Origin: Minisyncoccota bacterium
GTDB taxonomy: Bacteria; Patescibacteriota; Minisyncoccia; Minisyncoccales; JAGOPM01
Assembly: GCA_041651395.1 (NCBI GenBank)
Contig: JBAZJI010000001.1
Span: 182,533 to 246,532 of the forward strand
Length of the DNA stretch: 64,000 bases
Direction of reading: 5' to 3'
The position numbers and the translations under genes were made by a program. Within the stretch, counting starts at the first letter, position 1. Every line of letters begins with the position of its first letter. Below, one piece after another: positions 10,101 through 29,121 of the stretch. The notes beneath the pieces are model-generated. The model was not told the DNA's origin. It saw nothing but the letters and a program-made list of their open reading frames with translations, and did not search any database.

Positions 10101-12570
10101 GATGATTGCGTTCCTTAAAGGTGTTATGCCTTCGGCGCAGCTCAAATTTGCCGAACCTTGCACCGGGACAGAGGAGAAAGCTGATTATAATTATTGCGAC
10201 AAATCCAGCCCTGCTAAATGCCAACAAGAAGATGCCACGACTTTAACCCAATGCGAAACAAAATATGGCAAGGGTAATTGCTTTAAGGCTGACCCGACTT
10301 GTGCCGGCAAATGTGCCAAGATGGGGGCTAGTTGCCGCAAATGTGTGCACGGCATGTGTGCTTATTATGACCCGGCGGGTAATCCCAATACGGTGAATAA
10401 TTCCAAATGGTACATTGCCAATTATAGGCTTAGTGGCACGGCTGTTCCGATTGGTGAAGATACGGAAATGGCGATTGTCGCCCGCATCGATTTCCTCTGG
10501 AATGGGGTAACCAAGAATGATTTTAATTTCGCGCAATGCACTGAAACTCAAGACTTGGAAGTTGATTGCTATAAGAGTATTTCTATCCGATATGCCGCGC
10601 AAGGCAATCCTAAAGTGTTGGGCCAAAAATATTACATCAAAGTTACGGAAAAAGATGGCAATGTTTTCTGGTTTGGCTCTAGTGGCAGCATTAAAAACGA
10701 TGACCAAAATGCCAACATCGCTTATTTGAGGAGCCTTATTGATATCTATACAAATATAACGCCCGATTATGTTAAGGAATGTTTTACTACTCCCAAACCG
10801 GCCGGAGTGAAAAATCCGACTCCCAAAGCGGCCGGCAGCCTCGCCCCCAAGGGCGCCCCGGCCGATGACCCTTATTATAGAGGTGAGTGGCAGTATTGTT
10901 ACCCTGACGGGAAGAACTTGAATTCCGATTGTCGGAAAATGTTTTATTGCGATTTGCGCAATGCCTGTTCTGGCCAAAATTGTAATGTAACTGAAACTTC
11001 CCGCTATTATTACAAGCTCACTTCTTGCCAAGACGGTTTGGCTTATCAGTCTGCCTTGAAGGGCAAGACTACTGGATATTGTTATAACACCAGGCAAGAG
11101 GCTGAGAGCGCTTGTAAGAGATATTTTTATTGCGCTTCGGGTAATGGCACGGCCACCAATGTTTTACTGACTAAAGCCGGCAAAGCCTATACCGATGTTT
11201 ATGAATGTACGAGAAACCTCAAGGTTGATGAGTCCGGCTCCGGCCCGATTGGGCAGTGCTACGATAGCGAGCAGGAAGCCAAAGACCACTGCAGCCGTTG
11301 GTATTATTGCCCGGCCGATCCAGCCAAAAAAGGCTGCTCGCCTTCTAATACTTATGCCGACGAGGCAGCTTGTATGGCGGGTGTGATAAAAAATGCCCCC
11401 AAGGCTTTGCCTAAGTGCTACAAGGATCAAGAAACGTGCAATCAGGCTTGCCAGTCAAATGTTTTGTGGACTGCTTATAATGATCCAAAAGAGGGGCTAA
11501 TTTGCGACCAAGTTAAAGAGAGAGATCGCAATGGCGCTATTAGGCAATTTTATGGGAAGGTTGATGATGCGATTTCTGAATGCCGCCAATATTTAGATAC
11601 CAATAATCGCAAAGATACCAATTTGGATTGCTATAAAACTTTTTCGGAATGTGACGAGGCTATCAGTGGTAAGAGCCGCATGCGCGTCTGCCTAAAATCC
11701 GGGGATGCCAAATGTGCCGCTTTGCCGAGTAAATACGAAAATACTCAGGCCGGATGCGATAAATTTTTAAGCGATAATAAAGGGTTGGTTGGTTTGAATA
11801 AATGTTATGATTCGCTTTATTCAGCCACTTGCGACAGTGATTGTAAAAATGCCGGCTCCTCGCAATTCAAGGGCGCTTTCTATATCAAACCCGATGCGGC
11901 GGCCGGGAAAAATGGCGGCTGTTTGGCCTTGAGCGGATTTGAAAACGGCAAGCTAGCCTGCGAGAACGAAATTTCCCGCGCTTGGGATACGCAGGTTAAT
12001 AAGACTTGTTATCTTGATACCGCCGATTGCAATTCCAATTTCCCCAAAGGCGGTAGGGAGGCTGTACCTAATGTTTCCAAGGTTATGAATAGCGGGCTGT
12101 ATAAGTTTTATTATTACAACAAGACCATTGAATCCTGCGTGCTAAGCCAACGATATTTTTCTACCCTAAGGGAATGCAAGGATTTTTATTCTAAGATGAG
12201 CGTGGAAGCTTTGCCTGATTGCTTTAGTTGGCTTGCTGAGTGTCAGGCCAAGGGTAACCGCTATGCGTTTTTTGTCCGCGAGGGTTTACAAGGTATTTAT
12301 AAGATGACTACGGAAAGATATGCCTCTCCCTCGGCTTGCAGACAAAATGTGGCCAAATATTATTCGCCGCTTAAAGCTTATTCGGTTTGTTATACGAGTA
12401 TCGCCGCAGCCTCAACTGATAAGGAAAAGGAAAAACAGAAACTAAACTTTTATTATTTGAATAATTCGACCTGCCGGTATGCGGGAAAGTTTCTGACGCA
12501 AAAAGCTTGCGAATATTCAACTAAGCAAAGATGTTTCATCAGTTCCCGTTGTGACAATAAAGTGATTTGA
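4156..12570 (+). CDS. giant secreted Cys-rich modular surface protein (2804 aa)
   Basis: Single uninterrupted ORF opening with signal peptide MSQYKVFCKAIFTVFCVVMVLAFAGIANA. It holds 7 copies of a six-Cys ~48-aa module (…SYCxxxxCxxxKTTxxxCKAxNNGxxCFEVPYCGG…DSKC). It also has repeated CGDGKCExxENKCNCPxDC modules and FN3-like TxYCVKxYAxS signatures. Confidence 0.8.
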   Translation: MSQYKVFCKAIFTVFCVVMVLAFAGIANAFTQQSTSQVKFSNISVSGGGGQIFIYDNNKYDPQTVSADIRNTPLKPCLDTRQLGSGGLKISWNLSAAKPVGFDHWYVRYACASTPAIAADTNTIGRAYSDTITWSSPALSAGQYCKIWAYAMKGSNSNEGLNIGLGGANTSPIQACSLKPSISILEGKTLSVSSISITVRYNDTGDNSDRGQIYAYVYDSLCTKLIGYAGPSTVSKNGTITLVKGSLDANTTYCVKPYAISDDNVRGFGATQMKITTGASSPKPAEDFSNNFKICRTSDTDKCSDFTTQSPLTLLACNSYVAGLGIAKFNTCYLVSDTNSVLACNAACSKASGEASEELSYCDTAFKCVGGKMTKTECKLKNGNKDCWTGLYCGGQWYNADSKCIPTTAALLINPYIPETTDFKCVSETLSSKVETALFAKLLSTGGAASANVFFDVYDKSAKWVASQSFSGKASGSEMSYNPLLEQGTEYRFKASAYTSGNSTSVSVLFTTPYCTTPEPLEELSYCDGLVCRGVKTTKTKCRTELNKGLDCRAGLYCGGTASNPDQTCKAGAPADYSLLLSVPEVTVKDCSAAGSKADISVIMMPSLGSNNSGNILVEQLDANGSVVTSKTIASVRSLENYYWNFSLSPKQAAKVRATLYVVGGKTIQTKDVVVKCAEEPVSVFSYCEAKTCVARKMTESACRAANGGKDCYVNAYCGGKINNPDANCLGLDQNKIEIVLPSQFDQICAGDTIIRAPVKIRIISTFGGVIGTATVKVLNSFGTEILSQKYTDAKAGSAYGNEVIFQPNQKYKVEASLGTSNAAPSIVSAEFIAKSCATQTDEVKTRSFCSGIVCRTVKETAAECKAENNGNACFEVPYCGGTISDYGDSKCTSIDTSKERSYCSAGKCTTIKTTAADCKARNNGNACFEVPYCGGLWYNGDSKCQQSSCSKESLRSLSSELRSVYENAGGYKKYCYKGVTLKVGLSLYGAIQCPNLYMPYVEQDVYLSNTSLDLAWRLAATTEQEAVNNIQGYIDNNIARLTKDCECYKGIIVSRLMETAPAGGTVDFPYSARLVVDTTSGRYFNDITGCDESSKTGGEFCVGGNTIEDVKNNARRYIDNHPNEFTKTQCISTDTIKERSYCSGNSCITIRSTATACREKNNWQDCFEVPYCGGLWYNGDQKCAALDPVQERSYCLGATCKTVKTTAANCKAMNNGTDCFALPYCGGTISDYGDSKCGALKQLTITNPTASYWKLNDNIDFTWINGKPGETVYISRWLNYGSNSLALCAGRNDANGSGSCRWTVNAQLGKHTIWAKAASSQRDFDTKVEIEVIEHLPESSLSLKNNYFSSNVWDGPLQRKQVAGFKVTAQESTQNLTRFNLDFSGKIWENFAILDVYDATMGTSIFSKSIIAYDFIQSGSYWRINIEPFRLQVPLEANYPHELQVFLTSRDGQLSTVNYQIFVNKNAARATGANGLSYYAPDKDAEVSNFFRIAPQPPKYFACSNALCQIVKNPLTGKEVQSEAECQIATNFAKTCYLNDSTCQNICKSVCVKDGFAYKDRGDICCATDGYKEIDSSVLKNDGSCTAGNPNVKICSKCGNGSCDSMENKCNCSQDCGALCNKVNQNAVDATLCCPGLTWLSNQYRLGRDGGCVNSGFTNGICVNTKCGDAKCEGYEDKCNCPVDCKEVLGCKAANQNADSPGLCCQNLDWLSNKYRLSSNASCADSGFINGICVTTKCGDTKCEGYEDKCNCPQDCSGSVIPGTCVAEGKVIYPDGSACCSGLTKITGQNVGYDGVTCVDVYSSGMGFCSKCGDGKCENPENKCNCPIDCACGNGRCDGNENYQTCPQDCEKPTEEKYCYKGMYIYFSNYPNPKVNNAKYWLSNWDFGGDLKGFSGSVETAKAAAEMYVASLCDGTNAKSYNCTQCERTDLIPEVMEKICFNNKTYYYRSNKPNAESKTLFWVKIILGGELKTIGHDSESQMIAFLKGVMPSAQLKFAEPCTGTEEKADYNYCDKSSPAKCQQEDATTLTQCETKYGKGNCFKADPTCAGKCAKMGASCRKCVHGMCAYYDPAGNPNTVNNSKWYIANYRLSGTAVPIGEDTEMAIVARIDFLWNGVTKNDFNFAQCTETQDLEVDCYKSISIRYAAQGNPKVLGQKYYIKVTEKDGNVFWFGSSGSIKNDDQNANIAYLRSLIDIYTNITPDYVKECFTTPKPAGVKNPTPKAAGSLAPKGAPADDPYYRGEWQYCYPDGKNLNSDCRKMFYCDLRNACSGQNCNVTETSRYYYKLTSCQDGLAYQSALKGKTTGYCYNTRQEAESACKRYFYCASGNGTATNVLLTKAGKAYTDVYECTRNLKVDESGSGPIGQCYDSEQEAKDHCSRWYYCPADPAKKGCSPSNTYADEAACMAGVIKNAPKALPKCYKDQETCNQACQSNVLWTAYNDPKEGLICDQVKERDRNGAIRQFYGKVDDAISECRQYLDTNNRKDTNLDCYKTFSECDEAISGKSRMRVCLKSGDAKCAALPSKYENTQAGCDKFLSDNKGLVGLNKCYDSLYSATCDSDCKNAGSSQFKGAFYIKPDAAAGKNGGCLALSGFENGKLACENEISRAWDTQVNKTCYLDTADCNSNFPKGGREAVPNVSKVMNSGLYKFYYYNKTIESCVLSQRYFSTLRECKDFYSKMSVEALPDCFSWLAECQAKGNRYAFFVREGLQGIYKMTTERYASPSACRQNVAKYYSPLKAYSVCYTSIAAASTDKEKEKQKLNFYYLNNSTCRYAGKFLTQKACEYSTKQRCFISSRCDNKVI
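5224..7870 (+). repeat. array of seven six-cysteine ~48-aa modules inside the 2804-aa gene, including a near-identical 45-bp DNA repeat (6937-6981 vs 7655-7699)
   Basis: Protein-level repeats EELSYCDTAFKC..., KERSYCSAGKC..., QERSYCLGATC... read directly; the DNA string tgttttgaggtgccatattgcggcgggctttggtataacggcgat occurs twice. Confidence 0.7.
8941..9712 (+). repeat. tandem CGxGxC-ExxENKCNCPxDC modules with LCCxxLxWLSNxYRL spacers inside the 2804-aa gene
   Basis: Repeated CGNGSCDSMENKCNCSQDC / CGDAKCEGYEDKCNCPVDC / CGDTKCEGYEDKCNCPQDC / CGDGKCENPENKCNCPIDC / CGNGRCDGNENYQTCPQDC read in the translation. Confidence 0.65.
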
Positions 12571-17390: not shown

Positions 17391-19556
17391 ATGGTGAAAA
17401 AGCTCGAAAAGATTCAAAAAAGGGATGGCCGCATTGTTGATTTTGATCAAGTGAAGATTACCGACGCGGTCGAGAAGGCGATTTTGGCAACCAATGCCGG
17501 TGACGGGGCAATGGCCGCAAAAGTTTCTGATAAAGTGACCGATATTTTATCTAGAAGATTTCGTAAGGGCGAGGCGCCTAATATCGAACAGGTACAAGAT
17601 GTTATTGAGGAGGTATTGATGCTGGAAGATTTGGTGGAAACGGCCAAGGCTTACATTATTTATCGTGAGCAACGCCGCCAATTACGCGAAATCGAAAAAG
17701 CTACTGATGAATCGGTTGGGCACGTCGAGCAATATTTGAATAAACTGGATTGGGAGGTGAAGGAGAATGCCAATATGGCTTATTCTTTGCAGGGTCTTAA
17801 CCATTATGTGGCGACCTATGTGATGAAAAAATATTGGCTGGAAAAAATTTATCCCAAAGAAGTCCGCGAGGCCAATGAGAACGGGGCTTTTCATGTGCAT
17901 AATTTAGATACACTTGGACCGTATTGCATGGGTTGGGATCTTTACGATTTTTTACTCAAGGGCTTTGGCGGGGTTAACGGCAAAGTGGAATCTAAACCGC
18001 CAAAACATTTCCGTTCTGCCCTTGGGCAAATTGTAAACTTTTTGTACACCATGCAGGGGGAGTGCGCCGGAGCCGTGGCCTTTTCTAATTTTGATACTTT
18101 GCTAGCCCCTTACATTCGCCATGACAATTTGAATTATCAGCAAGTTAAGCAGGCGATGCAGGAGTTCATGTTTAATTTGGCTGTGCCGACTCGGGTTGGA
18201 TTTCAGACGCCCTTTACTAATATTACTTTAGATATTAAACCCTCAGCGGCTTTTGCCAGTGAGCCGGCTTTAGTGGGTGGCGTGGCGCAAGAAAAAACCT
18301 ATTCCGAATATCAGGAAGAAATGCGGATTTTAGATAAAGCTATTTATGAGTGTATGTTGGAGGGTGATAAAAATGGACGGCCCTTTACCTTTCCGATACC
18401 AACTATAAATATTACGAAGGATTTTGATTGGGATAACCCCGATCTTGATATCGTTTGGGAGGCGACGGCAAAATATGGCATAAATTATTTTGCCAATTAC
18501 ATAAATTCGGAAATGGATCCCAAGGATGTGCGCTCGATGTGTTGCCGGCTTCGCTTGGATTTGACCGAGCTGCGTAATCGCGGCGGCGGCGGACTTTTTG
18601 GGGCTGGAGCTCTGACCGGCTCAGTGGGTGTGGTAACCATTAATTTGCCCAGAATCGGCCATACTTCTAAAACCAAAAAGGAGTTTTTTGCCCAGTTGCA
18701 TAAAATAATGGATTTGGCTAAAGACAGTTTGGAGATAAAGCGCAAGGTTTTGGAAAATTTCATTGAGAAGGGCCTTTATCCTTATTCGCGCTATTATTTA
18801 GCCGGAGTCAGAAAGGCCCGCGGAAAATATTTTGCCAATCATTTTTCTACCATCGGCCTTACGGGTATGAATGAAACCCTTTTGAATTTTTTGGGTGAGG
18901 ATATCGGCTCGCAAAAAGGGCGTAAATTCACTTTAGAGGTGCTCGATTATATGAGAGATGTATTGGTCAAATACCAAGAGGAAACCGGAAATATTTATAA
19001 TTTAGAGGCGACGCCGGCAGAAAGTACTTCCTATCGCTTGGCGCTTAAGGATTTGAAGATGCACCCCGATATAATCCACGCCGGAACCAAGGAAGTGCCT
19101 TACTATACTAATTCCACCTTATTGCCGGTCAATTATACCGATGATGTTTTTGAGACTCTGAAACTGCAAGACGAGATACAATGTAAATATACCGGCGGAA
19201 CGGTCTTGCATATTTTTGTCGGGGAGAGGATACACGAAATAGGGCCAGTGAAGAATTTAGTCAAAAAAATATTCAGCAAATTCCGACTTCCTTATATTAC
19301 CATTACTCCGACCTTTTCTATTTGCCCCGTGCATGGATACATTTCCGGCGAGCACAAGACTTGCCCCAAGTGCGTGGTGCAGCAGCCTTGCGAGGTGTAT
19401 TCGCGCATTGTTGGGTACTTGAGGCCGGTCAACCAGTGGAATGAAGGCAAACAGCAGGAATATTGTGACCGGAAAACTTATAAAGTGGAAATTCCCCAAG
19501 CTGCTCCCGCCCAAGAGGGCTCACACGTCCAGGCAATCTTAGTTAAAGAACCCTAA
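17391..19556 (+). CDS. nrdD: anaerobic ribonucleoside-triphosphate reductase (class III RNR)
   Basis: N-terminal ATP-cone (MVKKLEKIQKRDGRIVDFDQVKITDAVEKAI). C-terminal Zn-ribbon CPVHGYISGEHKTCPKC and glycyl-radical-type RIVGYL motif. 721 aa. Confidence 0.85.
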   Translation: MVKKLEKIQKRDGRIVDFDQVKITDAVEKAILATNAGDGAMAAKVSDKVTDILSRRFRKGEAPNIEQVQDVIEEVLMLEDLVETAKAYIIYREQRRQLREIEKATDESVGHVEQYLNKLDWEVKENANMAYSLQGLNHYVATYVMKKYWLEKIYPKEVREANENGAFHVHNLDTLGPYCMGWDLYDFLLKGFGGVNGKVESKPPKHFRSALGQIVNFLYTMQGECAGAVAFSNFDTLLAPYIRHDNLNYQQVKQAMQEFMFNLAVPTRVGFQTPFTNITLDIKPSAAFASEPALVGGVAQEKTYSEYQEEMRILDKAIYECMLEGDKNGRPFTFPIPTINITKDFDWDNPDLDIVWEATAKYGINYFANYINSEMDPKDVRSMCCRLRLDLTELRNRGGGGLFGAGALTGSVGVVTINLPRIGHTSKTKKEFFAQLHKIMDLAKDSLEIKRKVLENFIEKGLYPYSRYYLAGVRKARGKYFANHFSTIGLTGMNETLLNFLGEDIGSQKGRKFTLEVLDYMRDVLVKYQEETGNIYNLEATPAESTSYRLALKDLKMHPDIIHAGTKEVPYYTNSTLLPVNYTDDVFETLKLQDEIQCKYTGGTVLHIFVGERIHEIGPVKNLVKKIFSKFRLPYITITPTFSICPVHGYISGEHKTCPKCVVQQPCEVYSRIVGYLRPVNQWNEGKQQEYCDRKTYKVEIPQAAPAQEGSHVQAILVKEP

Positions 19557-19678
19557 ATTTTCCCCCGCCTAAAAAGCGGGGAAAGGTTTAGAATGAAAAA
19601 TATCCAATGGATACCGGCGAAAGCCGGTATGGCAAAATGAAATTATTGGTTCAACTAAATTAGTTATCGGTTGATTTT

Positions 19679-20386
19679 ATGCTTATTGGCGGATTGCAAA
19701 AAACAACATTAATTGATTATCCGGGTAAAATAGCCTGCGTTGTTTTTTTGGCCGGTTGTAATTTTCGGTGCCCATTTTGTTACTCAGCGGAAATTGTTTT
19801 GCCGGAAAAAATTTTAAGGCAGCCGACGATCAGCGAGGAAAAATTTTTTGCTTTTCTGAAGGACAAAGTCGGGATGCTCGACGGGGTAGTAGTCTGCGGC
19901 GGAGAACCGACCTTAAATGAGGATTTACCCAATTTTATAAAGAAAATAAAAAATTTAGGATTTTTGGTGAAGCTGGATACTAACGGCAGCAATCCCGCCA
20001 TGCTTAAAAAGCTCCTTAAGGGAAATTTTCTCGATTATGTAGCTATGGATATCAAAGCCAAGCCTGAAAATTATAAAAAGGTTGGCTGTGGTGCCTCGGA
20101 TTTTCAAAAAGTAGAGGAAAGCGTAAAAGAGTTGAAGAAAAATAATATTGCCTTTGAATTTAGAACCACGATGGTTCCGGGCTTGGTTTCGGCTTCGGAT
20201 ATGCCCCAAATTGCCAAATGGATCGGCGGTTTAGACGTTCCTTATTATTTACAGAATTTTCGTCCGGATAAAACTTTAGACCCTTCCTTGATGTCTCTTT
20301 CCCCTTATACTGACCAAGAAATCAAAGAAGCCGAACAAGCCGCCAAGCCGTATTTTAAGAGTGTGAAAGTGCGAAACTATATTTGA
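19679..20386 (+). CDS. nrdG: anaerobic RNR activating protein (radical SAM)
   Basis: CNFRCPFCYS (CxxxCxxC radical-SAM cluster motif) near the N-terminus, plus the GGEPTL motif. Immediately downstream of nrdD. Confidence 0.75.
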   Translation: MLIGGLQKTTLIDYPGKIACVVFLAGCNFRCPFCYSAEIVLPEKILRQPTISEEKFFAFLKDKVGMLDGVVVCGGEPTLNEDLPNFIKKIKNLGFLVKLDTNGSNPAMLKKLLKGNFLDYVAMDIKAKPENYKKVGCGASDFQKVEESVKELKKNNIAFEFRTTMVPGLVSASDMPQIAKWIGGLDVPYYLQNFRPDKTLDPSLMSLSPYTDQEIKEAEQAAKPYFKSVKVRNYI

Positions 20387-20533
20387 GAAACTGGGGCTTT
20401 GCCCCACGCACCTAACTGCCTTGCGCGATACCTTAAAAGATAATTTGTGTGAGTATTAAGAAGATATCCAAGACTTCGACCCACAGCTCTTCTTGCAAAG
20501 AGCTGATTTTTTTATATTATTAAAGCAATATAT

Positions 20534-21613
20534 ATGATGAAGATTGAGTTCCCGGTTTTCAAAACTAGAGTCCAAGGGGTTGATAGAAAGTTCGACCTTA
20601 CGACCGTAGCGGGCCGCAGAGAATATTTTCAGGCCAAAGCCGGATTAGAGATAGCCAAGATAAAGGATTATTTGGATAAGGGCGGCACTTTTGTTGCGTA
20701 TTTATTGGGTAAGAAGAATTCCGGTAAAGGAACTTATTCTAAGCTTTTTGCTGAGGCTATCCAAACCGATAGGGTCGCACATATTTCTATTGGCGATCTC
20801 GTCCGTTCGGTCAACGAAGAGGCGAAAGACCCTGCTAAGAAAAGAGAATTAATTGCTTGGTTAGAGAAAAATTATCGCGGTTATAGCGATCCGGAAGAAG
20901 GTATTAATATTTTGCTCTCTCGTGACGTTTCTAAGCTTTTGCCTACGGAACTCATTTTGGCTTTGACTAAGCGCGAAATTGCCAAGCACCCGCGCAAAGC
21001 TATTTTTTTAGATGGTTTTCCAAGGCAATTAGACCAAATTTCTTACTCCTTATACTTCCGCGACCTGATCGACTATAGGCAAGACCCGGACTTTTTCGTT
21101 TTAATAGATGTTTCCGCTTCGATTATTGATGAGCGCATTAAATATCGGCGCATTTGCCCGGCTTGCAAAACCCCGCGCAACCTTAAGCTTTTAAGGACCT
21201 CTAAAGTTCAATTTAATAAGAACAATAAAGAGTATGAGCTTATTTGCGACAATCCCGATTGTAGTGGTGGCAATCCAGTCATGGTGCAGAAAGAAGGGGA
21301 TAGCTTAGGCATTGAAGCTATTCGTGACCGGATTGAGGCTGATGATACCTTAGTAGAAAAAGCTTTTGGTCTTTATGGTATACCAAAAGTTTTGTTGAGA
21401 AATTCGGTGCCCTTGGATGTAGTTAGGGATATGGTTGATGATTACGAGCTCACGCCCGAGTATGTTTATGAAACCCAAGGAGACGGTTCGGTAAAAGTTA
21501 CGGAAAAACCTTGGACTATAATTGATGATCGGGGAGTGGTTTCTAATTCCTTGATGCCCGCCCCGGTAGCCCTTTCCCTTATTAAGCAGATGTCAGACGT
21601 GTTGGGATTATAA
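20534..21613 (+). CDS. adenylate kinase-family NMP kinase paralog with N-terminal extension
   Basis: P-loop GKKNSGKGTYSKLF, HISIGDLVR (NMP-binding), FLDGFPRQLDQ, and a Cys4 lid (RICPACKTP…CDNPDCSG). A second, more canonical adk is at 44310. Confidence 0.55.
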   Translation: MMKIEFPVFKTRVQGVDRKFDLTTVAGRREYFQAKAGLEIAKIKDYLDKGGTFVAYLLGKKNSGKGTYSKLFAEAIQTDRVAHISIGDLVRSVNEEAKDPAKKRELIAWLEKNYRGYSDPEEGINILLSRDVSKLLPTELILALTKREIAKHPRKAIFLDGFPRQLDQISYSLYFRDLIDYRQDPDFFVLIDVSASIIDERIKYRRICPACKTPRNLKLLRTSKVQFNKNNKEYELICDNPDCSGGNPVMVQKEGDSLGIEAIRDRIEADDTLVEKAFGLYGIPKVLLRNSVPLDVVRDMVDDYELTPEYVYETQGDGSVKVTEKPWTIIDDRGVVSNSLMPAPVALSLIKQMSDVLGL

Positions 21614-21678
21614 TTCCCCGGGGCTAATGCCGTAGATCAGGTTTTTACAAAAGGTTTTTAGGCGCACGCAAACAAAAA

Positions 21679-21703
21679 CTGCCTTAGTCGGGCAGTTTTT
21701 GTT
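21679..21703 (+). terminator. terminator hairpin after the NMP-kinase gene
   Basis: ctgcc-ttagtcg-ggcag followed by tttttgttt. Confidence 0.45.
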
Positions 21704-22081
21704 TCTTGACGCTCGGGCTTTATTATTGAAATGGCAGCGTAATTATTTTTTTCAAAGCAATGCTGCAAAAACCTTTTGCGGGAGTAGTTAGTGCGAATTA
21801 GATTTTATTAAATATGAATAATAAAAGAAGCCGCTAAAAGCGGCTTATGAGGGAGACATCAAAGATGTTTTGTGGTGGGGCCCGGCGAAATTGGTTACAT
21901 ATAAGGAGGTTCAAGCATTTTGAAAATTATTCAGGCCGGGCCCGAGGTGAAAAATGTAGGATCGTCTACCTACGGCATTATCTTTAGGGTGTTTATGGGT
22001 AAAAGTGCTGGAGGAGCAATGGTAAGATTGATCCCAAATAATAATATCATCTAATCTCTTTTAGTCAAATAAAGATAAATA

Positions 22082-22109
22082 AAAGCGCGCTCTTGGGTAG
22101 AGCGCTTTT
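22082..22109. terminator. bidirectional terminator-like hairpin inside the ORF-free region
   Basis: aaagcgcgctct-tgggt-agagcgcttt, with A-run upstream and T-run downstream. Confidence 0.4.
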
Positions 22110-22683
22110 GAATGAATAATCTTGGCATTGTCCCATAAGGTGTGGGGTTTGGTAGAGCGGCTGAATACATAATGCCCAGGATGTGAAAGTTTATGGCATT
22201 ATTTTTAACGGGTACTGTCACCTGAATTTGGCTGTAAGCCAATATAATCCATCAGCTTGGTTGCGATCTTACAAGCCTTTTTTGGATTTGTTTATTCTTG
22301 GCCGCTTGCCCGTGCATCAACCACTTAAAATAGAAAATCATTTTTTTGACCGTCGCATTTTTGTTATCAGGGTTTATCCCTACTCCTAACCATTTTCCTC
22401 CTTTGTCTTTGCATTGGAGAGAATTCCGCGCACGTGGCCGGATGATGGCTTGGGGGAGTCCTCGCATTCCTTTGACTGCGGGATTTGGATTTCCCTAAAA
22501 CAACCTTAAAAAATCATTTTGGACCCGCTCTTATAAAGAGCATTGCACCTCCTCGAAATTTTCCATCTGGGCGTGGGATGACTGCTAAGATATATAGGCG
22601 TATTTTAAGGGGCTAGGTCTCCTGAGCGCGCATGCGTTCAGTAACAGTATATTATTTAAGAGAGAGGTATTTGTCAATATATA

Positions 22684-22727
22684 TAAAAAAGGGCGCAAAA
22701 GCCCTTAAAAAACGAAAGGCGCCTTTG
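22684..22727 (-). terminator. two tandem hairpins with T-runs on the minus strand (aagggc-gcaaaa-gccctt; aaaggcgccttt)
   Basis: Read directly. On the minus strand each GC hairpin is followed by TTTTTT, implying a minus-strand transcript ending here that starts somewhere in 22.74-23.77 kb. Confidence 0.4.
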
Positions 22728-23770
22728 GGGTAAGGTCGCCTGTGTGGGATTTTCCATGTCTCTTGCCCCTTGCATTCGGATTCTTGTCAGGAGTCTTTGC
22801 GACTGATGTTGACGAAAATCTGATGTTTCAAAAAATACTGGCAATGTCTTGTACGGGTCGCTTTGGAGCCGTACTTGCGCTATCCCTCTTGTTGGCAATA
22901 AGCCAAATGCCTCCGTCTTGGAACTCTTGGCAGTGGAAGAATGGGTCTCACGGGACCGATTCCAGTGCTATTCCTCGAACGCTAAGGCCTTTTATAGATA
23001 GGGCGTGGACACATTGTTCTCCAGCTGTTTGTTGGACGATGTCTGCCAAGCAAACAAATTAAGCGAGATAAACCGGATCATTTGTCCGGGCGGGGTATCA
23101 ACAGAACGGCTTTTTGCATGGTTCATAACTCCCTGCAAATAAGTTTTCTGAAAGATTCCCCCTGATCCCATTTGAACTCATTGATCTTAAAGATCGATTT
23201 TTTGGCCTATCATGGTGAATAATTCACCCTTCTACCATCTTTTGATGGTGACGCCTTTCCCATTAGCCTTCTTGATTAATCCGGCTAATGGCGGCTTGCC
23301 TGCAGTGATTTCTTTTGGCACTGCAGCGCGGTTTAGCGTGTTGGTGGATGGCTTGGTCAAAGTAATCCGGGCAGTCCCGGTTATTTGGCTTGGGCCATTT
23401 TTAGGCAAAAATCAAGGTCCGTCTCGAATATGGTTCATGGCTATTGTTCTCTCTGCGCTTTAGCGCCTTGGGTGAAGACTTGCAACCGCAACCGGTTGCT
23501 GGTCAAAAACAAATACCATGAGCGGGTGGGAGAGTGGAAAATATATTAATATGAATGAGCATTTATGCCGGGTTAGGCCCCTTTCCGATTTCAATCGTCG
23601 CCGTAAATATTACTGGAGCAATCTCTGTTGCTGAATTTGGGGCCTTTTCCCTTGTAAACCAACCAGGACCTTGTCCTTGATTGGTTTTTAATGATAGCAT
23701 ACTTTATATATTTTGTCAAGAGGGTTATTTTACAACAAAAAAACGCCCATTTCTGAGCGCTTTCCGTTTG

Positions 23771-23841
23771 TCGGGCTGCCGGGAATTGAACCCGGATTTT
23801 ACCCACCCCAAGGGCATGTACTGCCGTTGTACTACAGCCCG
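23771..23841 (-). tRNA. tRNA-Pro (anticodon GGG)
   Basis: Reverse complement folds as acceptor CGGGCTG / CAGCCCG, D-arm GTAC-AACGGCA-GTAC, anticodon arm TGCCC-TTGGGGT-GGGTA (anticodon GGG, G37), T-arm CCGGG-TTCAATT-CCCGG. 71 nt, CCA not encoded. Confidence 0.85.
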
Positions 23842-23905
23842 ATGTAGCCATTGGCTACATCGGGCGATCCCTTAAAGGTGGGTTCCCGGCAGCCAAGGGT
23901 CAGTG

Positions 23906-24127
23906 TTATTTCGTCTTTTTGCTAAGAGCCTTAATACACTTGGCACAGGCCAATACTTTTTGTCCCACAAACTTTTTATATTTGCCGGTAGCCGAAACAG
24001 GCACCAATACTTTGTGCAAATTCGGGAATTTTCTTTTCTTGGGGCCGGGATTGTAGCGGGACATGAGCTTCTTATACTCACGGGTCATAATGGAGCCCTT
24101 GCCGCAAATGGTGCAGATTCTGGACAT
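23906..24127 (-). CDS. rpmB: 50S ribosomal protein L28
   Basis: 73 aa reading MSRICTICGKG…KRKFPNLHKVLVPV…, matching the conserved L28 N-terminus (MSRVCxxxGK…RxFxPNLH). Confidence 0.8.
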   Translation of the reverse strand: MSRICTICGKGSIMTREYKKLMSRYNPGPKKRKFPNLHKVLVPVSATGKYKKFVGQKVLACAKCIKALSKKTK

Positions 24128-24235
24128 AGTTTCAGTAATTATTTTGACTTCTAAATAATAGTATAATTTTTCATTTTTGGCAAGAGGATGAAGGGTTTGC
24201 GATATTTTGGCGCTGTTTGGTATAATGAGTCTGAT

Positions 24236-25180
24236 ATGAAAAAGATTTTATTTGCGCTTGTTATATTTTCTATTTTAATCGCGCCAAAGGTTTTGGCCTA
24301 CCAAGAATGGGTTGATAGCGGCTATAGGCAATCATCATATTCGGGGTTGGATTGCGGTAACTCGCCATTCACTTGTTATATTTCCGAGGATTACGTGGAG
24401 GCCAAGTATAATCAAGATATGGCCCAATATTACGCAGCCCAAAATACGGCCGGAGAAACCAATGATTATTCTATTATAAGGCAGCTAAGCCTTCCTGTTT
24501 ATGCAGGGGAAATGGTTGACGGGCGCCTTTATTGCTATTTTGGTTATGTTGAAAATCCCCAGACTCAGCGTTGCGAGAGAATAAGCGTGCCGGAAAATGC
24601 GGCACTTAGCGAGAGTGGAAAGGGGTGGAGCTGCTTATTCGGGTTTAAGAAAGTTTATGGCCAAGATGTTTGCGAATTGGATTCCGTCCCTTCTTTGGCC
24701 AAGGTTAAACTAGACAACCATACCAATGATTGGGGTTGCGTTTTTGGCTTCAAAAAGGCCTTCGGCGGTTGTGAGAGATTGATTTTCCCAGCGCATGGGC
24801 ATGCAGATTCTGAGGCTAAAGATGGTTGGGATTGCGATAGAGGATACGAGCGAACCGAAGATGGGGACTTTTGCCAGAAGATTGAAATTCCGGCTAATGC
24901 CAAACTCAGCAAGGCCGGCAAATCCTGGGTTTGCAATTCCGGCTATGCTGTACAGTATTTGGCCAATGATCAAAGAATTTGTGTTAAGGCCGGAACAGTA
25001 AAATCTCCCCTCAGAGCAGTGGCCGGGGTCAAAAAACTAAGCTGTAAATTTGGCTATGAGGATTCGGGCGGGGAGTGCACGAAAATTTTAATTCCGCTTA
25101 ATGGCCAGCTGGCCGCTGACGGCAAATCCTGGGTTTGTAAGTCGGGGTACCGAAAGGTTGAAGGCCGATGTCTAAGATAA
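24236..25180 (+). CDS. secreted protein with about six ~38-aa Cys-containing repeats (GxxWxCxxGY/F…C…IPANAxLSxxG)
   Basis: Start taken at ATG 24236 (MKKILFALVIFSILIAPKVLA signal peptide) rather than the tracker start 24188. Repeats read directly. TGgTATAAT lies at 24218-24226, only 10 nt upstream. Confidence 0.55.
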   Translation: MKKILFALVIFSILIAPKVLAYQEWVDSGYRQSSYSGLDCGNSPFTCYISEDYVEAKYNQDMAQYYAAQNTAGETNDYSIIRQLSLPVYAGEMVDGRLYCYFGYVENPQTQRCERISVPENAALSESGKGWSCLFGFKKVYGQDVCELDSVPSLAKVKLDNHTNDWGCVFGFKKAFGGCERLIFPAHGHADSEAKDGWDCDRGYERTEDGDFCQKIEIPANAKLSKAGKSWVCNSGYAVQYLANDQRICVKAGTVKSPLRAVAGVKKLSCKFGYEDSGGECTKILIPLNGQLAADGKSWVCKSGYRKVEGRCLR

Positions 25181-26820: not shown

Positions 26821-26823
26821 TAA

Positions 26824-26851
26824 AAAGCAGGGGAGATAACCCCTGTTTTTG
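26824..26851 (+). terminator. Rho-independent terminator (caggggagataacccctg + TTTTT)
   Basis: Read directly after the stop at 26820. Confidence 0.5.
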
Positions 26852-26854
26852 TAT

Positions 26855-26883
26855 TTGACAAAAATAAAATAAAATGCTATAAT
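26855..26883 (+). promoter_or_regulatory. perfect-consensus sigma70 promoter TTGACA-17 nt-TATAAT
   Basis: Hexamers and spacer read directly. AGGAGG RBS and ATG 26955 lie downstream. Confidence 0.5.
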
Positions 26884-26954
26884 TAATATATTGTAAAGAA
26901 GGCAGAAAAGCCTGATTTGTACAAGAACAAATATACAACGATTATTAGGAGGAA

Positions 26955-27164
26955 ATGATGAAAAGAATAGTTACGATCGCTCTCTGTTTTGCGGTTCTAG
27001 TCATGTGTTGCGCTACACTGATAGGATGCATTGGCGACGGCAGGAGTTTTGACGGGAAAGAATACGACCCCTTCAACGACAGGTGGAGCCCGCTTTACAA
27101 GCTTAACCCTCTGCGCCATCTTGATCCGCTCAAAGACCTCAGTCCCTGGAATTGGGACGAGTGA
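26955..27164 (+). CDS. small secreted protein / putative lipoprotein (69 aa)
   Basis: MMKRIVTIALCFAVLVMCCATLIGC hydrophobic N-terminus with Cys. Strong RBS, consensus promoter upstream, terminator 27180-27204 downstream. Confidence 0.45.
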   Translation: MMKRIVTIALCFAVLVMCCATLIGCIGDGRSFDGKEYDPFNDRWSPLYKLNPLRHLDPLKDLSPWNWDE

Positions 27165-27389
27165 AAACATTAATCACATAGCCGCACATCTGTGCGGCTT
27201 TTATTATGAAAACAGCTTGTTTTATAAGTATTTGTTCTTATTGATTTTTTATGGATATTATGTTATAATTAAACATTCACGTTCGCTAAAAATTGTAGAG
27301 GTTTTTACCTAAAATGCCTGATAATTGCAGGCGCGATATTTTAAGCGTAGTAATATCAAATCAAGATTGATTTGATAAGGAGGAATTTT

Positions 27390-27926: not shown

Positions 27927-27953
27927 AGCCCCACATTGTGGGGCTCTTTTTAT
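27927..27953 (+). terminator. terminator hairpin agccccaca-tt-gtggggct + TTTTT
   Basis: Read directly after the stop at 27908. Confidence 0.5.
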
Positions 27954-27962
27954 ACTCAGGTA

Positions 27963-27991
27963 TTGACAATATTGGGTTTTCCGCTTATCAT
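27963..27991 (+). promoter_or_regulatory. str-operon promoter candidate TTGACA-17 nt-TATCAT, followed by a ~215-nt structured leader before rpsL
   Basis: Hexamers read directly. The leader contains nested hairpins (ttcgcg…cgcgaa; ggctctgttgg…ccaacagat…agagcc). Confidence 0.4.
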
Positions 27992-28211
27992 GATTTCGCG
28001 AAAGAAAACTTCGCGCTACAATTTTCCTTTGATAGAAGACGCTGAAAACCTAGGCGGGGAACTGCCCGGGATAATAAACGGCTCTGTTGGCATGGCTATT
28101 CCAACAGATCAGATAGAGCCAAGCGTATACGATGCAAACAAAAAATTGTGGGGTTACGGAGTTTTAACTTCATTTTTTGTATTATCAAAACCAGAAATTA
28201 TAAAGAAAACT

Positions 28212-28640
28212 ATGCCGACAGTACATCAGCTATTAAAACACGGCAGGAAAGCCACAAAGAAGAGGTCCAAAACCTTGGCTTTGACATACGGCTTTAATAC
28301 CAAGAAAAATAAACCGGTTGGCTATTTTGCGCCTTTTAAGCGTGGAATTTGCATTAAGGTCACAACTACGACCCCTAAAAAACCGAACTCAGCTTTGCGT
28401 AAAATCGCCAAGGTTCGCCTTTCTAATGGCCATGAAGTGACTGCTTATATCCCAGGTGTGGGACATAATTTACAGGAGCACTCCGTGGTTATGATCCGTG
28501 GCGGCAGGGTAAAAGACTTGCCTGGTGTCCGCTATCACATTGTGCGTGGTGTCCTCGATACCACTGGCGTGGAAGGTCGCAAACGCGGAAGGTCATTATA
28601 TGGTGCCAAAAGGCCCAAGGCTGGAAAAACTGGAAAATAA
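28212..28640 (+). CDS. rpsL: 30S ribosomal protein S12
   Basis: [17 protein letters not shown]…[12 protein letters not shown]…[28 protein letters not shown] is near-identical to the conserved S12. The tracker ORF 27936 has a 92-aa spurious in-frame upstream extension. Confidence 0.9.
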
Positions 28641-28659
28641 TTAAGGACAAAGGACAAAT

Positions 28660-29121
28660 ATGGCTAAGAAATTTGTAAAAAAAGAACTGTCCCCTGACCC
28701 CATTTATAACAGTGTCCTCATTAGCAAGCTAGTGAACTATGTTATGAAAAAAGGCCAGAAACAGACTGCTCGCAAGATTGTTTACGGTGCTTTTGAAATC
28801 GTTAAGGGCAAAACCAATCAAGAGCCCATGGACGTTTTTAACAGTGCTATCCGCAACGCCAGACCGTTGTTGGAAATTAAACCAAGGCGCGTGGGAGGTG
28901 CCGTTTATCAAGTTCCTAAGGAGGTTGATGAGCAGCGCGGAACCGTTTTAGCCTTGCGCTGGATTTTGGAGGCCTCCCGCAAGAAAAAGGGCAAGCCCTT
29001 GGCGCAGAAGCTGGCCAACGAAATCATGGAAACTGCCAATGGGCAGGGAGATGCTATCCGCAAGAAAGAGAACGTGCACAAGATGGCTGAGGCCAACAGG
29101 TCATTTGCCCACCTTGGATAA
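28660..29121 (+). CDS. rpsG: 30S ribosomal protein S7
   Basis: Conserved S7 blocks (KPRRVGGAVYQVP, MAEANRSFAH) and position after rpsL. Confidence 0.9.
   Translation: MAKKFVKKELSPDPIYNSVLISKLVNYVMKKGQKQTARKIVYGAFEIVKGKTNQEPMDVFNSAIRNARPLLEIKPRRVGGAVYQVPKEVDEQRGTVLALRWILEASRKKKGKPLAQKLANEIMETANGQGDAIRKKENVHKMAEANRSFAHLG

Follow-up and report, generated by a model that had tools for sequence, protein, structure and literature searches.

A conserved noncoding block beside a tRNA-Pro gene in Patescibacteria, with three predicted RNA genes

The gene-free region beside tRNA-Pro

The DNA analysed here (the window) is a 64-kb stretch of a 952 kb contig from a Patescibacteria lineage, in which genomes are ~1 Mb and tightly packed. 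The initial annotation described positions 21614 to 23770 as free of ORFs in an otherwise gene-dense genome, and as ending at a tRNA gene. This description is accurate. The longest ORF in the interval has 106 aa (22742-23062, plus strand) and the next-largest gene-free gaps in the window measure ~400-550 nt. The tRNA gene is tRNA-Pro(GGG) (Table 1). Public gene callers place no gene between the NMP-kinase gene on one side and rpmB on the other, in the source contig and in L017. The neighbourhood consists of translation genes: rpmB, tRNA-Pro and rpsL-rpsG-fusA-tuf.

Alignment with the sister species (S1) separates a conserved block from a variable 3′ flank of the kinase gene and from a spacer next to the tRNA gene. 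The flank includes the kinase terminator hairpin (21670-21704). It also contains a ~130-nt segment specific to the window, between the arms of a 12-nt perfect inverted repeat (21648-21659 and 21767-21778). The spacer is 45 nt long here, ~125 nt in L016 and ~140 nt in L017. Between strains, the stem of the tRNA-Pro terminator in this spacer is preserved through compensatory changes. Part of the tRNA 3′ flank is duplicated (TTTGTCGGGC) in the L017 spacer.

Table 1. Features of the locus. Positions are those of the window; transcripts, promoters and terminators are predictions.
Feature	Position	Strand	Description
tRNA-Pro(GGG)	23770-23841	minus	ARAGORN and cmscan; 100% identical in S1
Spacer with tRNA-Pro terminator	23725-23769	minus	hairpin 23768-23734, −15.1 kcal/mol; hypervariable between strains in length and sequence
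Promoter P1	23691-23719	minus	TTGACA-17-TGnTATCAT, 11/12; predicted start ~23684
Unit A, predicted ~1000-nt noncoding transcript	22685-23684	minus	promoter P1 and terminator 22706-22689
Unit A terminator region	22689-22726	minus	weak A/U hairpin 22726-22708, then hairpin 22706-22689 and U6 run
Promoter P2	22649-22677	minus	TTGACA-17-TAATAT, 10/12; predicted start ~22642
Unit B, predicted ~560-nt noncoding transcript	22078-22642	minus	promoter P2 and terminator 22105-22087
Unit B terminator	22087-22105	minus	−12 kcal/mol, z −4.1; invariant in S1
Promoter P3	22041-22068	minus	TTGACT-16-TGnTATTAT, 10/12 with extended −10; predicted start ~22034
Unit C, predicted ~215-nt noncoding transcript	21818-22034	minus	promoter P3 and terminator 21846-21828; fold z −3.9
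Conserved noncoding block (units C, B and A)	21816-23724	minus	~1.9 kb, from alignment to sister species
Variable 3′ flank of NMP-kinase gene	21614-21815		outside conserved block; unalignable with sister species

Coding potential, conservation and distribution

The conserved core is noncoding. Aligned with L001, the block shows indels of a length not divisible by three at 14 positions, and these are borne out in the independent assemblies L006, L016 and L017. The flanking genes have 0-6 gap columns each against L001, over 0.2-3.9 kb of aligned gene sequence. Because the indels are not in triplets, coding is excluded under any genetic code. An alternative code also fails since readthrough of TAA, TAG or TGA yields no long frame; reading through any one stop codon gives at most 206 codons. 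Block substitutions, relative to the sister species, have no codon-phase bias or 3-periodicity. No ORF of the block has an excess of synonymous over nonsynonymous changes.

The initial annotation named a degraded protein gene as an alternative. Six-frame translations of the block had no match in Pfam at E<=1 and none among 5.8 billion proteins. The longest ORF, searched exhaustively by phmmer against 1.8 billion representatives, returned only itself and one spurious, weak Ig-repeat match. The latter was discarded; it is a eukaryotic protein and its score is inflated by repeats. Hence, with no real protein homology, indels out of triplet and no periodicity, we rejected a degraded protein gene or recognisable pseudogene.

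The block is 94.9% identical to L001, with 5.3% of columns differing, and 94.5-94.6% identical to L016 and L017. For comparison, 24.4% of four-fold degenerate sites in the flanking genes (463/1901) differ from L001. Other long intergenic regions of the same species pair are 83-86% identical (14-17% differ; 44% in one case). Thus, as judged by alignment with one other species, the block is conserved above the neutral level. The fast decay expected of a pseudogene graveyard was not seen, since the sister-species locus is more conserved than both synonymous sites and other intergenic DNA. The transition to transversion count of the block, 68:19, does not differ from that of third codon positions. 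Four-fold divergence ranges widely, from 3% to 44%, among neighbouring genes, so recombination may contribute to the low divergence of the block. Substitutions in the block are clustered (index of dispersion 1.5-1.9, P<0.001), and invariant runs of 115-120 nt lie beside patches that are up to 25-35% divergent. This distribution fits better with vertical descent and uneven constraint than with one recent transfer.

Recoverable copies of the block occur in two sister species only, at the same position and in the same orientation. Searches of relatives and metagenome collections place it in one genus-level lineage. For species that are 80-87% identical (L012-L015, L018 and L019), no contig continues beyond the edges into the locus, and independent assemblies break at both edges. 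No homologue of the block was found by blastn or nhmmer in L002-L004, with 61-64% kinase identity; in relatives at this distance, the equivalent site is occupied by unrelated DNA, part of which bears GIY-YIG. A gene-poor stretch of ~1 kb in L002, with a similar promoter, was rejected as a homologue because its global alignment gave a z of 1.1 and it resembles small SD-ATG genes. Searches of phages and plasmids by blastn found no copy. Exact-pattern scans of IMG/VR and JGI metagenomes, using four conserved 18-22-mers, gave no matches or chance matches only.

These observations bear on whether the block is a functionless relic, either decayed genes or a degraded mobile element inserted at the 3′ end of tRNA-Pro, with low divergence due to recent recombination or transfer. 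Integrative elements and islands also occur directly 3′ of tRNA genes, with hypervariable junctions and unrelated content between the same flanking genes in more distant relatives. The partial tRNA-flank duplicate, the assembly breaks at both edges and the uneven four-fold divergence along the region would be consistent with such an origin. However, the block has no ORFs, integrase or other protein remnant in six frames, and the far edge, near 21800, lacks an att-like direct repeat matching the tRNA end. The only duplicate of tRNA-flanking sequence is the partial one in the L017 spacer. We therefore rejected a tRNA-targeting integrative element. Other points against a relic are the lack of copies in phage, plasmid, viral and JGI metagenome collections, and the constant position and orientation in both species. 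Uniform recent transfer should not produce clustered substitutions, or diverged promoter spacers between intact hexamers (see below). Constraint is distributed within the block in a way that indicates function, and the conserved edges coincide with predicted transcription signals. Overall, we regard a relic as unlikely. The best reading of the sequence comparisons is that the block consists of genus-restricted noncoding RNA genes under purifying selection.

Two further kinds of element were considered and rejected. A replication origin or other DNA-level element was discarded for want of a GC-skew turn or repeats; one weak DnaA-box-like site was noted by eye. A diversity-generating retroelement template or CRISPR array was discarded since the block lacks internal repeats and is present only once in the window.

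Predicted promoters, terminators and transcripts

The initial annotation proposed that a noncoding transcript of up to about 900 nt is made from the minus strand. The sequence of P1 strengthens this proposal; a near-consensus promoter lies at the place required for a transcript of ~0.9-1 kb. P1 is fully conserved in S1 and is among only 4 matches of at least 11/12 in the window. In 128 kb of strand, our promoter scan returned 39 matches of at least 10/12, including P1, P2 and P3. Those that have an extended −10 (TG) mostly precede genes. At P2, both hexamers are intact in S1, with 3 spacer substitutions and a 2-nt deletion just upstream. At P3, both hexamers are likewise intact and 4 of the 16 spacer bases have changed. 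Thus, the two promoters retain hexamers and spacing with 7 of 33 spacer bases altered.

Terminator-like sites are abundant; there are 14 in the interval 21000-24500, compared with 4.2 ± 2.1 in shuffled sequences. Two tandem minus-strand terminators had been proposed at the end of unit A. The downstream hairpin is a good terminator, but the upstream hairpin is weak and A/U-rich, and the pair together has a folding energy of −11.7 kcal/mol (z −1.0). In S1, this region is kept except for one loop change. The unit B terminator had been called bidirectional and we agree, because T runs flank both sides of the hairpin. Past each preceding terminator, the next −35 box is found within ~10-25 nt. The left edge of the block is the end of the unit C terminator tail and the other edge coincides with a promoter. 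In each of the three units, a separate predicted promoter and intrinsic terminator lie on one strand, as generically expected of a stand-alone noncoding RNA gene. All three are co-oriented with, and directly downstream of, tRNA-Pro(GGG) and rpmB.

On balance, and by a modest degree of belief, we think it probable that 21816-23724 comprises three noncoding RNA genes in tandem, each transcribed independently from the minus strand and under purifying selection. Transcription itself, together with the strand and the RNA ends of units A, B and C, is a prediction from sequence. According to this model, each unit would be an RNA gene in its own right, with transcription starting at a strong σ70-type promoter and stopping at the unit's own intrinsic terminator. 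In Staphylococcus aureus, SSR42 (~1.2 kb) and RNAIII (~0.5 kb) are examples of long regulatory RNAs whose genes each have a promoter and an intrinsic terminator. The predicted units resemble chromosomal sRNA and long regulatory RNA genes in having a stand-alone σ70-type promoter, a rho-independent terminator and no conserved ORF, and in their above-neutral conservation within a narrow lineage. They differ from these known RNAs in being three tandem units, in resembling none of them by sequence or Rfam model and in their host, a Patescibacteria (Paceibacterota) MAG.

Conserved and variable segments alternate within the units. Unit A has a 5′ stem-loop (23687-23656, −16.6 kcal/mol) and a 115-nt invariant run in its 3′ half (22799-22914). 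Unit B has an invariant run of 120 nt (22434-22554) and hypervariable patches at 22253-22278 and 22330-22357. Unit C has a hairpin (22018-22006) with CCUCC in the loop and, ahead of the terminator, a single-stranded segment rich in C. Unit C also contains the 9-bp G+C stem noted in the initial annotation (21943-21935 pairing with 21886-21878). This stem encloses a 48-nt variable loop, which has 7 of the 13 substitutions in the unit.

Purifying selection may act largely on primary sequence, with some parts locally structured. The structured parts would be the 5′ half of unit A, including a protective 5′ stem-loop, and the 9-bp stem and CCUCC-loop hairpin of unit C. The likeliest action of the units would be as stable trans-acting RNAs, through base-pairing and/or protein binding, a mode that we infer. 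For unit C, the most plausible targets would be Shine-Dalgarno regions, contacted through C-rich loops. The CCUCC loop, and the C-rich stretch before the terminator, resemble features of anti-Shine-Dalgarno sRNAs. RsaE/RoxS are sRNAs with such C-rich loops. More tentatively, units A (~1 kb) and B (~0.56 kb) could be the first members of new classes of noncoding RNA, long, strongly expressed and constrained in sequence, that are confined to a Paceibacterota lineage and have no described functional counterpart. They might, for example, serve as the scaffold of a ribonucleoprotein or as a regulator connected with translation. We consider this possible but doubtful.

Alternatively, the units might encode tiny proteins of ~8-45 aa, as mRNAs or as RNAs with a dual function, and might have an antisense partner similar to that of a type I toxin-antitoxin pair. 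Some sequence motifs would suit such a role. On the minus strand, unit B has GAGGAGG-N5-AUG, opening 9 codons within the 120-nt invariant run, and AAGGAGG-N3-AUG, opening 8 codons. In unit C, three GGAGG motifs on the plus strand are each followed after 4-9 nt by a start codon. A 35-codon plus frame (21950-22054) still ends in a stop in S1, where TAA has become TGA, and has ~4 third-position and 3 replacement changes. Conversely, such tiny ORFs cover only a small fraction of the conserved 1.9 kb, codon periodicity is found nowhere in the block, and the plus ORF at 21847-21987, of 46 aa, is reduced to 21 aa in S1. Furthermore, there is no plus-strand promoter ahead of unit C, the start codons are inside hairpins and the candidate peptides are not hydrophobic. 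Hence, we consider this explanation highly improbable.

RNA structure and comparison with large RNAs

The block belongs to no known RNA family. With Rfam 15, cmscan at gathering thresholds identified only tRNA in the whole window. At E<=10, there was no match between 21400 and 24200 to GOLLD, ROOL, OLE, raiA, RNase P, tmRNA, SRP, 6S, introns or small ribozymes. ARAGORN found no tmRNA in the window, and an Rfam scan of related loci returned no family match.

The initial annotation described the region as dense in hairpins. This is true of terminator-like sites, as noted above. However, fold z-scores in 150-nt windows are clearly negative in two zones only (21584-21958 and 23084-23833), and those in 21884-23083 are comparable to coding controls. 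Strong scores are confined to 21809-21958 and 23084-23833. The most conserved runs of units A and B fold no better than shuffled sequence. Two hairpins listed previously are present yet weak, with −3.6 kcal/mol at 23178-23200 and −6.4 kcal/mol at 23215-23230. Substitutions break fewer predicted pairs than expected from permutation: 2 compared to 12.7 at a pair probability of at least 0.95, and 19 compared to 28 at a probability of at least 0.5. Of 372 predicted pairs, 2 have compensatory changes: 23368/23379, in the hairpin 23367-23380, and 22914/22981. The covariation score is 0.009, compared with 0.007 in shuffles, and was reached by 27 of 500 shuffles; sliding the pair partners by −1 leaves it unchanged. 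With recoverable copies in two species only, this covariation is not significant. In a G-U strand test at a pair probability of at least 0.8, ~13 single changes were plus-compatible and 3 were minus-compatible. The test leans towards the plus strand, if anything, but is ambiguous and confounded by the G+T-rich composition of the leading strand. Taken together, the evidence for structure is modest and confined to local parts.

Initially, the region was proposed as a candidate for one or more large structured RNAs, with GOLLD and ROOL named as large RNAs typical of tRNA neighbourhoods. GOLLD, ROOL and OLE (PMC12286853, PMC5737381) are noncoding, several hundred to ~1000 nt long and sometimes found beside tRNA genes. 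The sizes of units A and B, and the adjoining tRNA-Pro, would be compatible with a new class of large, elaborately folded RNA of this kind, above all for the ~1-kb unit A. In addition, fold z-scores are −2 to −4 in the 5′ 600 nt of unit A (23084-23724), two pairs are compensatory and pair-breaking substitutions are depleted. Yet no covariance model matches even at E<=10, and covariation is not significant. Half of the block, including its most conserved runs, has no excess folding energy, and the G+C content is not above that of the genome. Rather than one large RNA, the block appears to be three smaller units, split by their own promoters and terminators. Known ornate RNAs are widespread but the block is confined to two species of one genus-level lineage. 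Since there is no Rfam match, three separate units are predicted and support for elaborate conserved structure is weak, a large ornate RNA is a minority possibility, and we judge it decidedly improbable. An ornate, ribozyme-like fold is less likely than trans-acting RNAs that act by base-pairing or protein binding.

We found no literature on regulatory or structural RNAs, or on sRNA biology, in the Candidate Phyla Radiation (Patescibacteria). The block takes up ~0.2% of the genome and is free of protein genes yet apparently under purifying selection, which suggests a function worth the cost. If expressed, the three predicted RNAs would be testable entry points into RNA-based regulation in Patescibacteria, and unit A would rank with the longer noncoding RNAs of bacteria. 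Because the block is more conserved than its flanks, and the tRNA junction is hypervariable, metagenome assemblies break at the locus much as they do at rRNA genes. Similar elements are probably under-represented in MAGs.

Conservation and coding capacity of the block

The window lies on a contig of 951,739 bp (ENA ERZ27247363, k141_1056181). The stretch between the NMP-kinase and tRNA-Pro genes (21614-23769) was singled out by the initial annotation as ORF-poor, and this is the case. Public gene callers call no gene there, the longest ORF is only 106 aa and single-stop readthrough opens at most 206 codons. Most of the stretch is occupied by a block that we compared with species S1. The block differs from S1 in 5.3% of columns (94.9% BLAST identity). 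By comparison, divergence is 24.4% at four-fold degenerate sites of 12 neighbouring genes (463/1901; range 3-44%) and 14-17% in other intergenic regions above 100 nt, with one case at 44%. To the left of the block, 200 nt could not be aligned with S1. Judged against these neutral levels, the block is conserved beyond neutrality.

The differences fall in clusters (index of dispersion 1.5-1.9, P<0.001). Invariant runs of 120 nt and 115 nt occur, as do short patches at 25-35% divergence (21895-21916, 22253-22272, 22924-22929 and 23259-23281). A uniform recent transfer, as the source of the low divergence, would not look like this; neutral-level patches would not be expected. Because such patches lie inside a slowly evolving block, the comparison argues that the block was inherited vertically over a long time, under purifying selection of uneven strength. 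Some contribution from recombination is possible, since four-fold divergence varies widely along the region.

The block carries 88 substitutions and 14 indel positions relative to S1. None of the indels has a length divisible by three, as confirmed in independent S1 assemblies; in the flanking genes, alignments of 0.2-3.9 kb contain 0-6 gap columns per gene. Substitutions between the window and S1 had no codon-phase preference in any indel-free block segment, and no block ORF of at least 20 codons had more synonymous than nonsynonymous changes. Six-frame translations gave no Pfam match at E≤1 and no match among 5.8 billion proteins. Exhaustive phmmer searches with the longest ORF returned nothing beyond that ORF itself and one spurious match, an Ig-repeat protein. 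By these measures, the block is noncoding. Tiny SD-AUG frames occur on each strand, yet they cannot explain why as much as 1.9 kb is conserved.

Predicted promoters, terminators and units

Features of the locus. Promoters, terminators and units are predictions; lengths are those of the predicted RNAs.
Feature	Position	Strand	Description
nrdD, nrdG, 359-aa NMP-kinase gene	17391-21613	plus	one flank of the locus
Conserved block	21816-23724	minus	units A, B and C
Unit C	21818-22034	minus	~215 nt
Terminator of unit C (last unit)	21846-21828	minus	T tail is left edge of block
P3 (unit C)	22068-22041	minus	TTGACT-16-TATTAT with TG
Terminator	22105-22087	minus	precedes P3
Unit B	22078-22642	minus	~560 nt
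P2 (unit B)	22677-22649	minus	TTGACA-17-TAATAT
Terminator	22706-22689	minus	precedes P2
Unit A	22685-23684	minus	~1000 nt
P1 (unit A)	23719-23691	minus	TTGACA-17-TATCAT with TG
tRNA terminator	23768-23734	minus	precedes P1
rpmB and tRNA-Pro(GGG)	23770-24088/24127	minus	other flank of the locus

The three predicted σ70-type promoters are among the best matches in the window, where only 39 matches of at least 10/12 occur in 128 kb of strand. The majority of extended −10 matches lie upstream of genes, indicating that the organism uses such promoters. In each case, the −35 box starts ~10-25 nt past a minus-strand terminator. P1 is unchanged in S1. P2 and P3 have intact hexamers and spacing there, with 7 of 33 spacer bases changed, a pattern expected of working promoters. 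A strand test using G-U-compatible single changes gave no minus-strand support; if anything it favours the plus strand, but this is confounded by the G+T-rich composition of that strand. The promoter-terminator architecture is therefore the basis for assigning the units to the minus strand.

Taken together, the best-supported reading of the sequence is that three noncoding RNA genes lie clustered in tandem, limited to a genus-level lineage. The largest member would be a stand-alone transcript of ~1 kb. Genes for stand-alone bacterial sRNAs and long regulatory RNAs are of the same kind, but none is alike in sequence.

Folding of the predicted RNAs

All hairpins listed by the initial annotation are present, although the second 'tandem terminator' and the two near 23.2 kb are weak. 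The claimed hairpin density holds for terminator-like sites (14, compared with 4.2 ± 2.1 in shuffles), but the excess folding energy is only local. In 150-nt windows, fold z-scores were −2 to −4 at 21584-21958 and 23084-23833, and like those of coding controls in the intervening 1.2 kb. Rfam 15 gave no match, even at E≤10. For unit A, a GOLLD/ROOL-type RNA is a less likely possibility.

We predicted pairs from the window sequence alone and compared S1 substitutions with permuted substitutions. With pair probability ≥0.95, 2 pairs were broken (12.7 expected); with ≥0.5, 19 were broken (28 expected). Paired positions changed at about half the rate of unpaired ones. Pairing is retained by double changes at 23368/23379 and 22914/22981. 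With effectively two species, covariation was not significant (0.009 against 0.007; 27 of 500 shuffles reached the score), and a slid control scored equally. Constraint largely on primary sequence is the best-supported interpretation.

Unit A has a 5' stem-loop of −16.6 kcal/mol. In unit C, a hairpin presents CCUCC in its loop and a C-rich stretch lies ahead of the terminator; the 9-bp G+C stem is invariant and its enclosed loop holds 7 of the unit's 13 substitutions.

Distribution and edges of the locus

The NMP-kinase has thousands of Patescibacteria homologues, with identity falling from 96% to 66% without intermediates. Relatives at 61-64% kinase identity keep nrdD-nrdG-kinase, with unrelated DNA beyond. 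Three further lineages were reached via the 90% cluster of the kinase. Species S1 (L001, L006, L007, L016 and L017) matches the genes of the window at ~90% nucleotide identity, and its strains are ~98.4% identical to one another; identity is 86.6% for S2 (L018) and ~80% for S3 (L012-L015 and L019). The block locus was recovered from S1 only, since S2 and S3 contigs end at the locus edges. All stop 47 or 101 nt past the stop codon of the kinase gene or, at the other edge, 21 nt beyond tRNA-Pro, and four S3 contigs from four separate runs share an identical terminal base. Another contig (L011), 100% identical to the window, terminates exactly at the tRNA-Pro 3' end, where L001 has a 100-N scaffold gap (L001 13057-13157). 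Contig ends fall at the locus edges in at least four lineages or samples; the assemblies are independent and come from several samples and three species. The locus is conserved above its flanks and its border is a strain-variable junction. Blastn and exact-pattern scans found no block copy in phage, plasmid, IMG/VR or JGI metagenome collections.

The tRNA-to-P1 spacer (23725-23769) is 45 nt here, ~125 nt in L016 (~6030-6145) and ~140 nt in L017 (~5900-6030), and so hypervariable even among strains of 98.4% identity. In L017, part of the tRNA 3' flank is duplicated within it (TTTGTCGGGC), resembling a scar left by integration or excision. This hypervariability, and the position of the block at a tRNA 3' end, suggest a mobile-element relic. 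Such a relic is without protein or att support, however, and would leave the internal constraint pattern of the block unexplained. The tRNA-Pro terminator stem is retained via double compensatory changes (CGCCCA/UGGGCG compared with CACCUA/UAGGUG).

The leader just 5' of tRNA-Pro (23837-23894, minus strand; L001 13238-13300; L019 95-160) forms a hairpin with a perfect 13-bp stem (23838-23865; −26.3 kcal/mol, z −7.9), which extends into the 5' end of the mature tRNA. Compensatory changes retain the stem in two further species (GCCCGAUGUAGCC, GCCCGCC..., GCCCGCUAGGCC). Upstream, the 12-nt GGCUGCCGGGAA (23894-23883) is invariant amid diverged leader sequence and complementary to the T-arm and acceptor 3' strand of tRNA-Pro. 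These elements may act as a signal for processing or for an alternative fold.

L002 (61% kinase identity) has ~1 kb without called genes (10290-11310) near its own tRNA-Pro(GGG). Directly after a terminator, this stretch starts at a strong minus-strand promoter (TTGACA-17-TATACT with TG, 11309-11281) very similar to those of the block. Several SD-ATG starts lie inside and GIY-YIG endonuclease fragments on the flanks. Homology to the block was ruled out (alignment z about 1).

The nrdD-nrdG-NMP-kinase order is kept across distant Patescibacteria (L002-L004, L012 and L016-L018). The kinase insert is rich in Cys-x-x-Cys pairs, and one homologue (P0002) is a fusion of the kinase with the radical-SAM activase. 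Beyond the kinase gene, a ~130-nt segment (21648-21778) is specific to the window and missing in S1. A perfect inverted repeat of 12 nt (CAAAAGGTTTTT / AAAAACCTTTTG) marks its two ends, the kinase terminator hairpin (21670-21704, with a perfect stem of 14 bp) lies inside, and the window has no second copy of the segment. It may be a small insertion. The L001 MAG (CAZQSQ010000003.1) is titled 'Candidatus Saccharibacteria', probably wrongly; the window's kinase protein is filed at NCBI under 'Candidatus Paceibacterota', with homologues in the Parcubacteria group.

A gene-poor gap of 551 nt (26821-27371) lies upstream of the rpsL-rpsG-fusA-tuf cluster, with 86% identity to S1 and a sole called ORF of 68 aa. 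It has the window's only perfect 12/12 promoter match with an extended −10 (26855-26883, plus strand), and might represent a long leader or a further small RNA. Between the window and L001, 3% of four-fold sites differ in rpsG and 13% in rpsL (region 27936-29121), compared with 37% in rpmB and 44% in the kinase gene. This uneven synonymous divergence points to strong codon-usage constraint or recombination.
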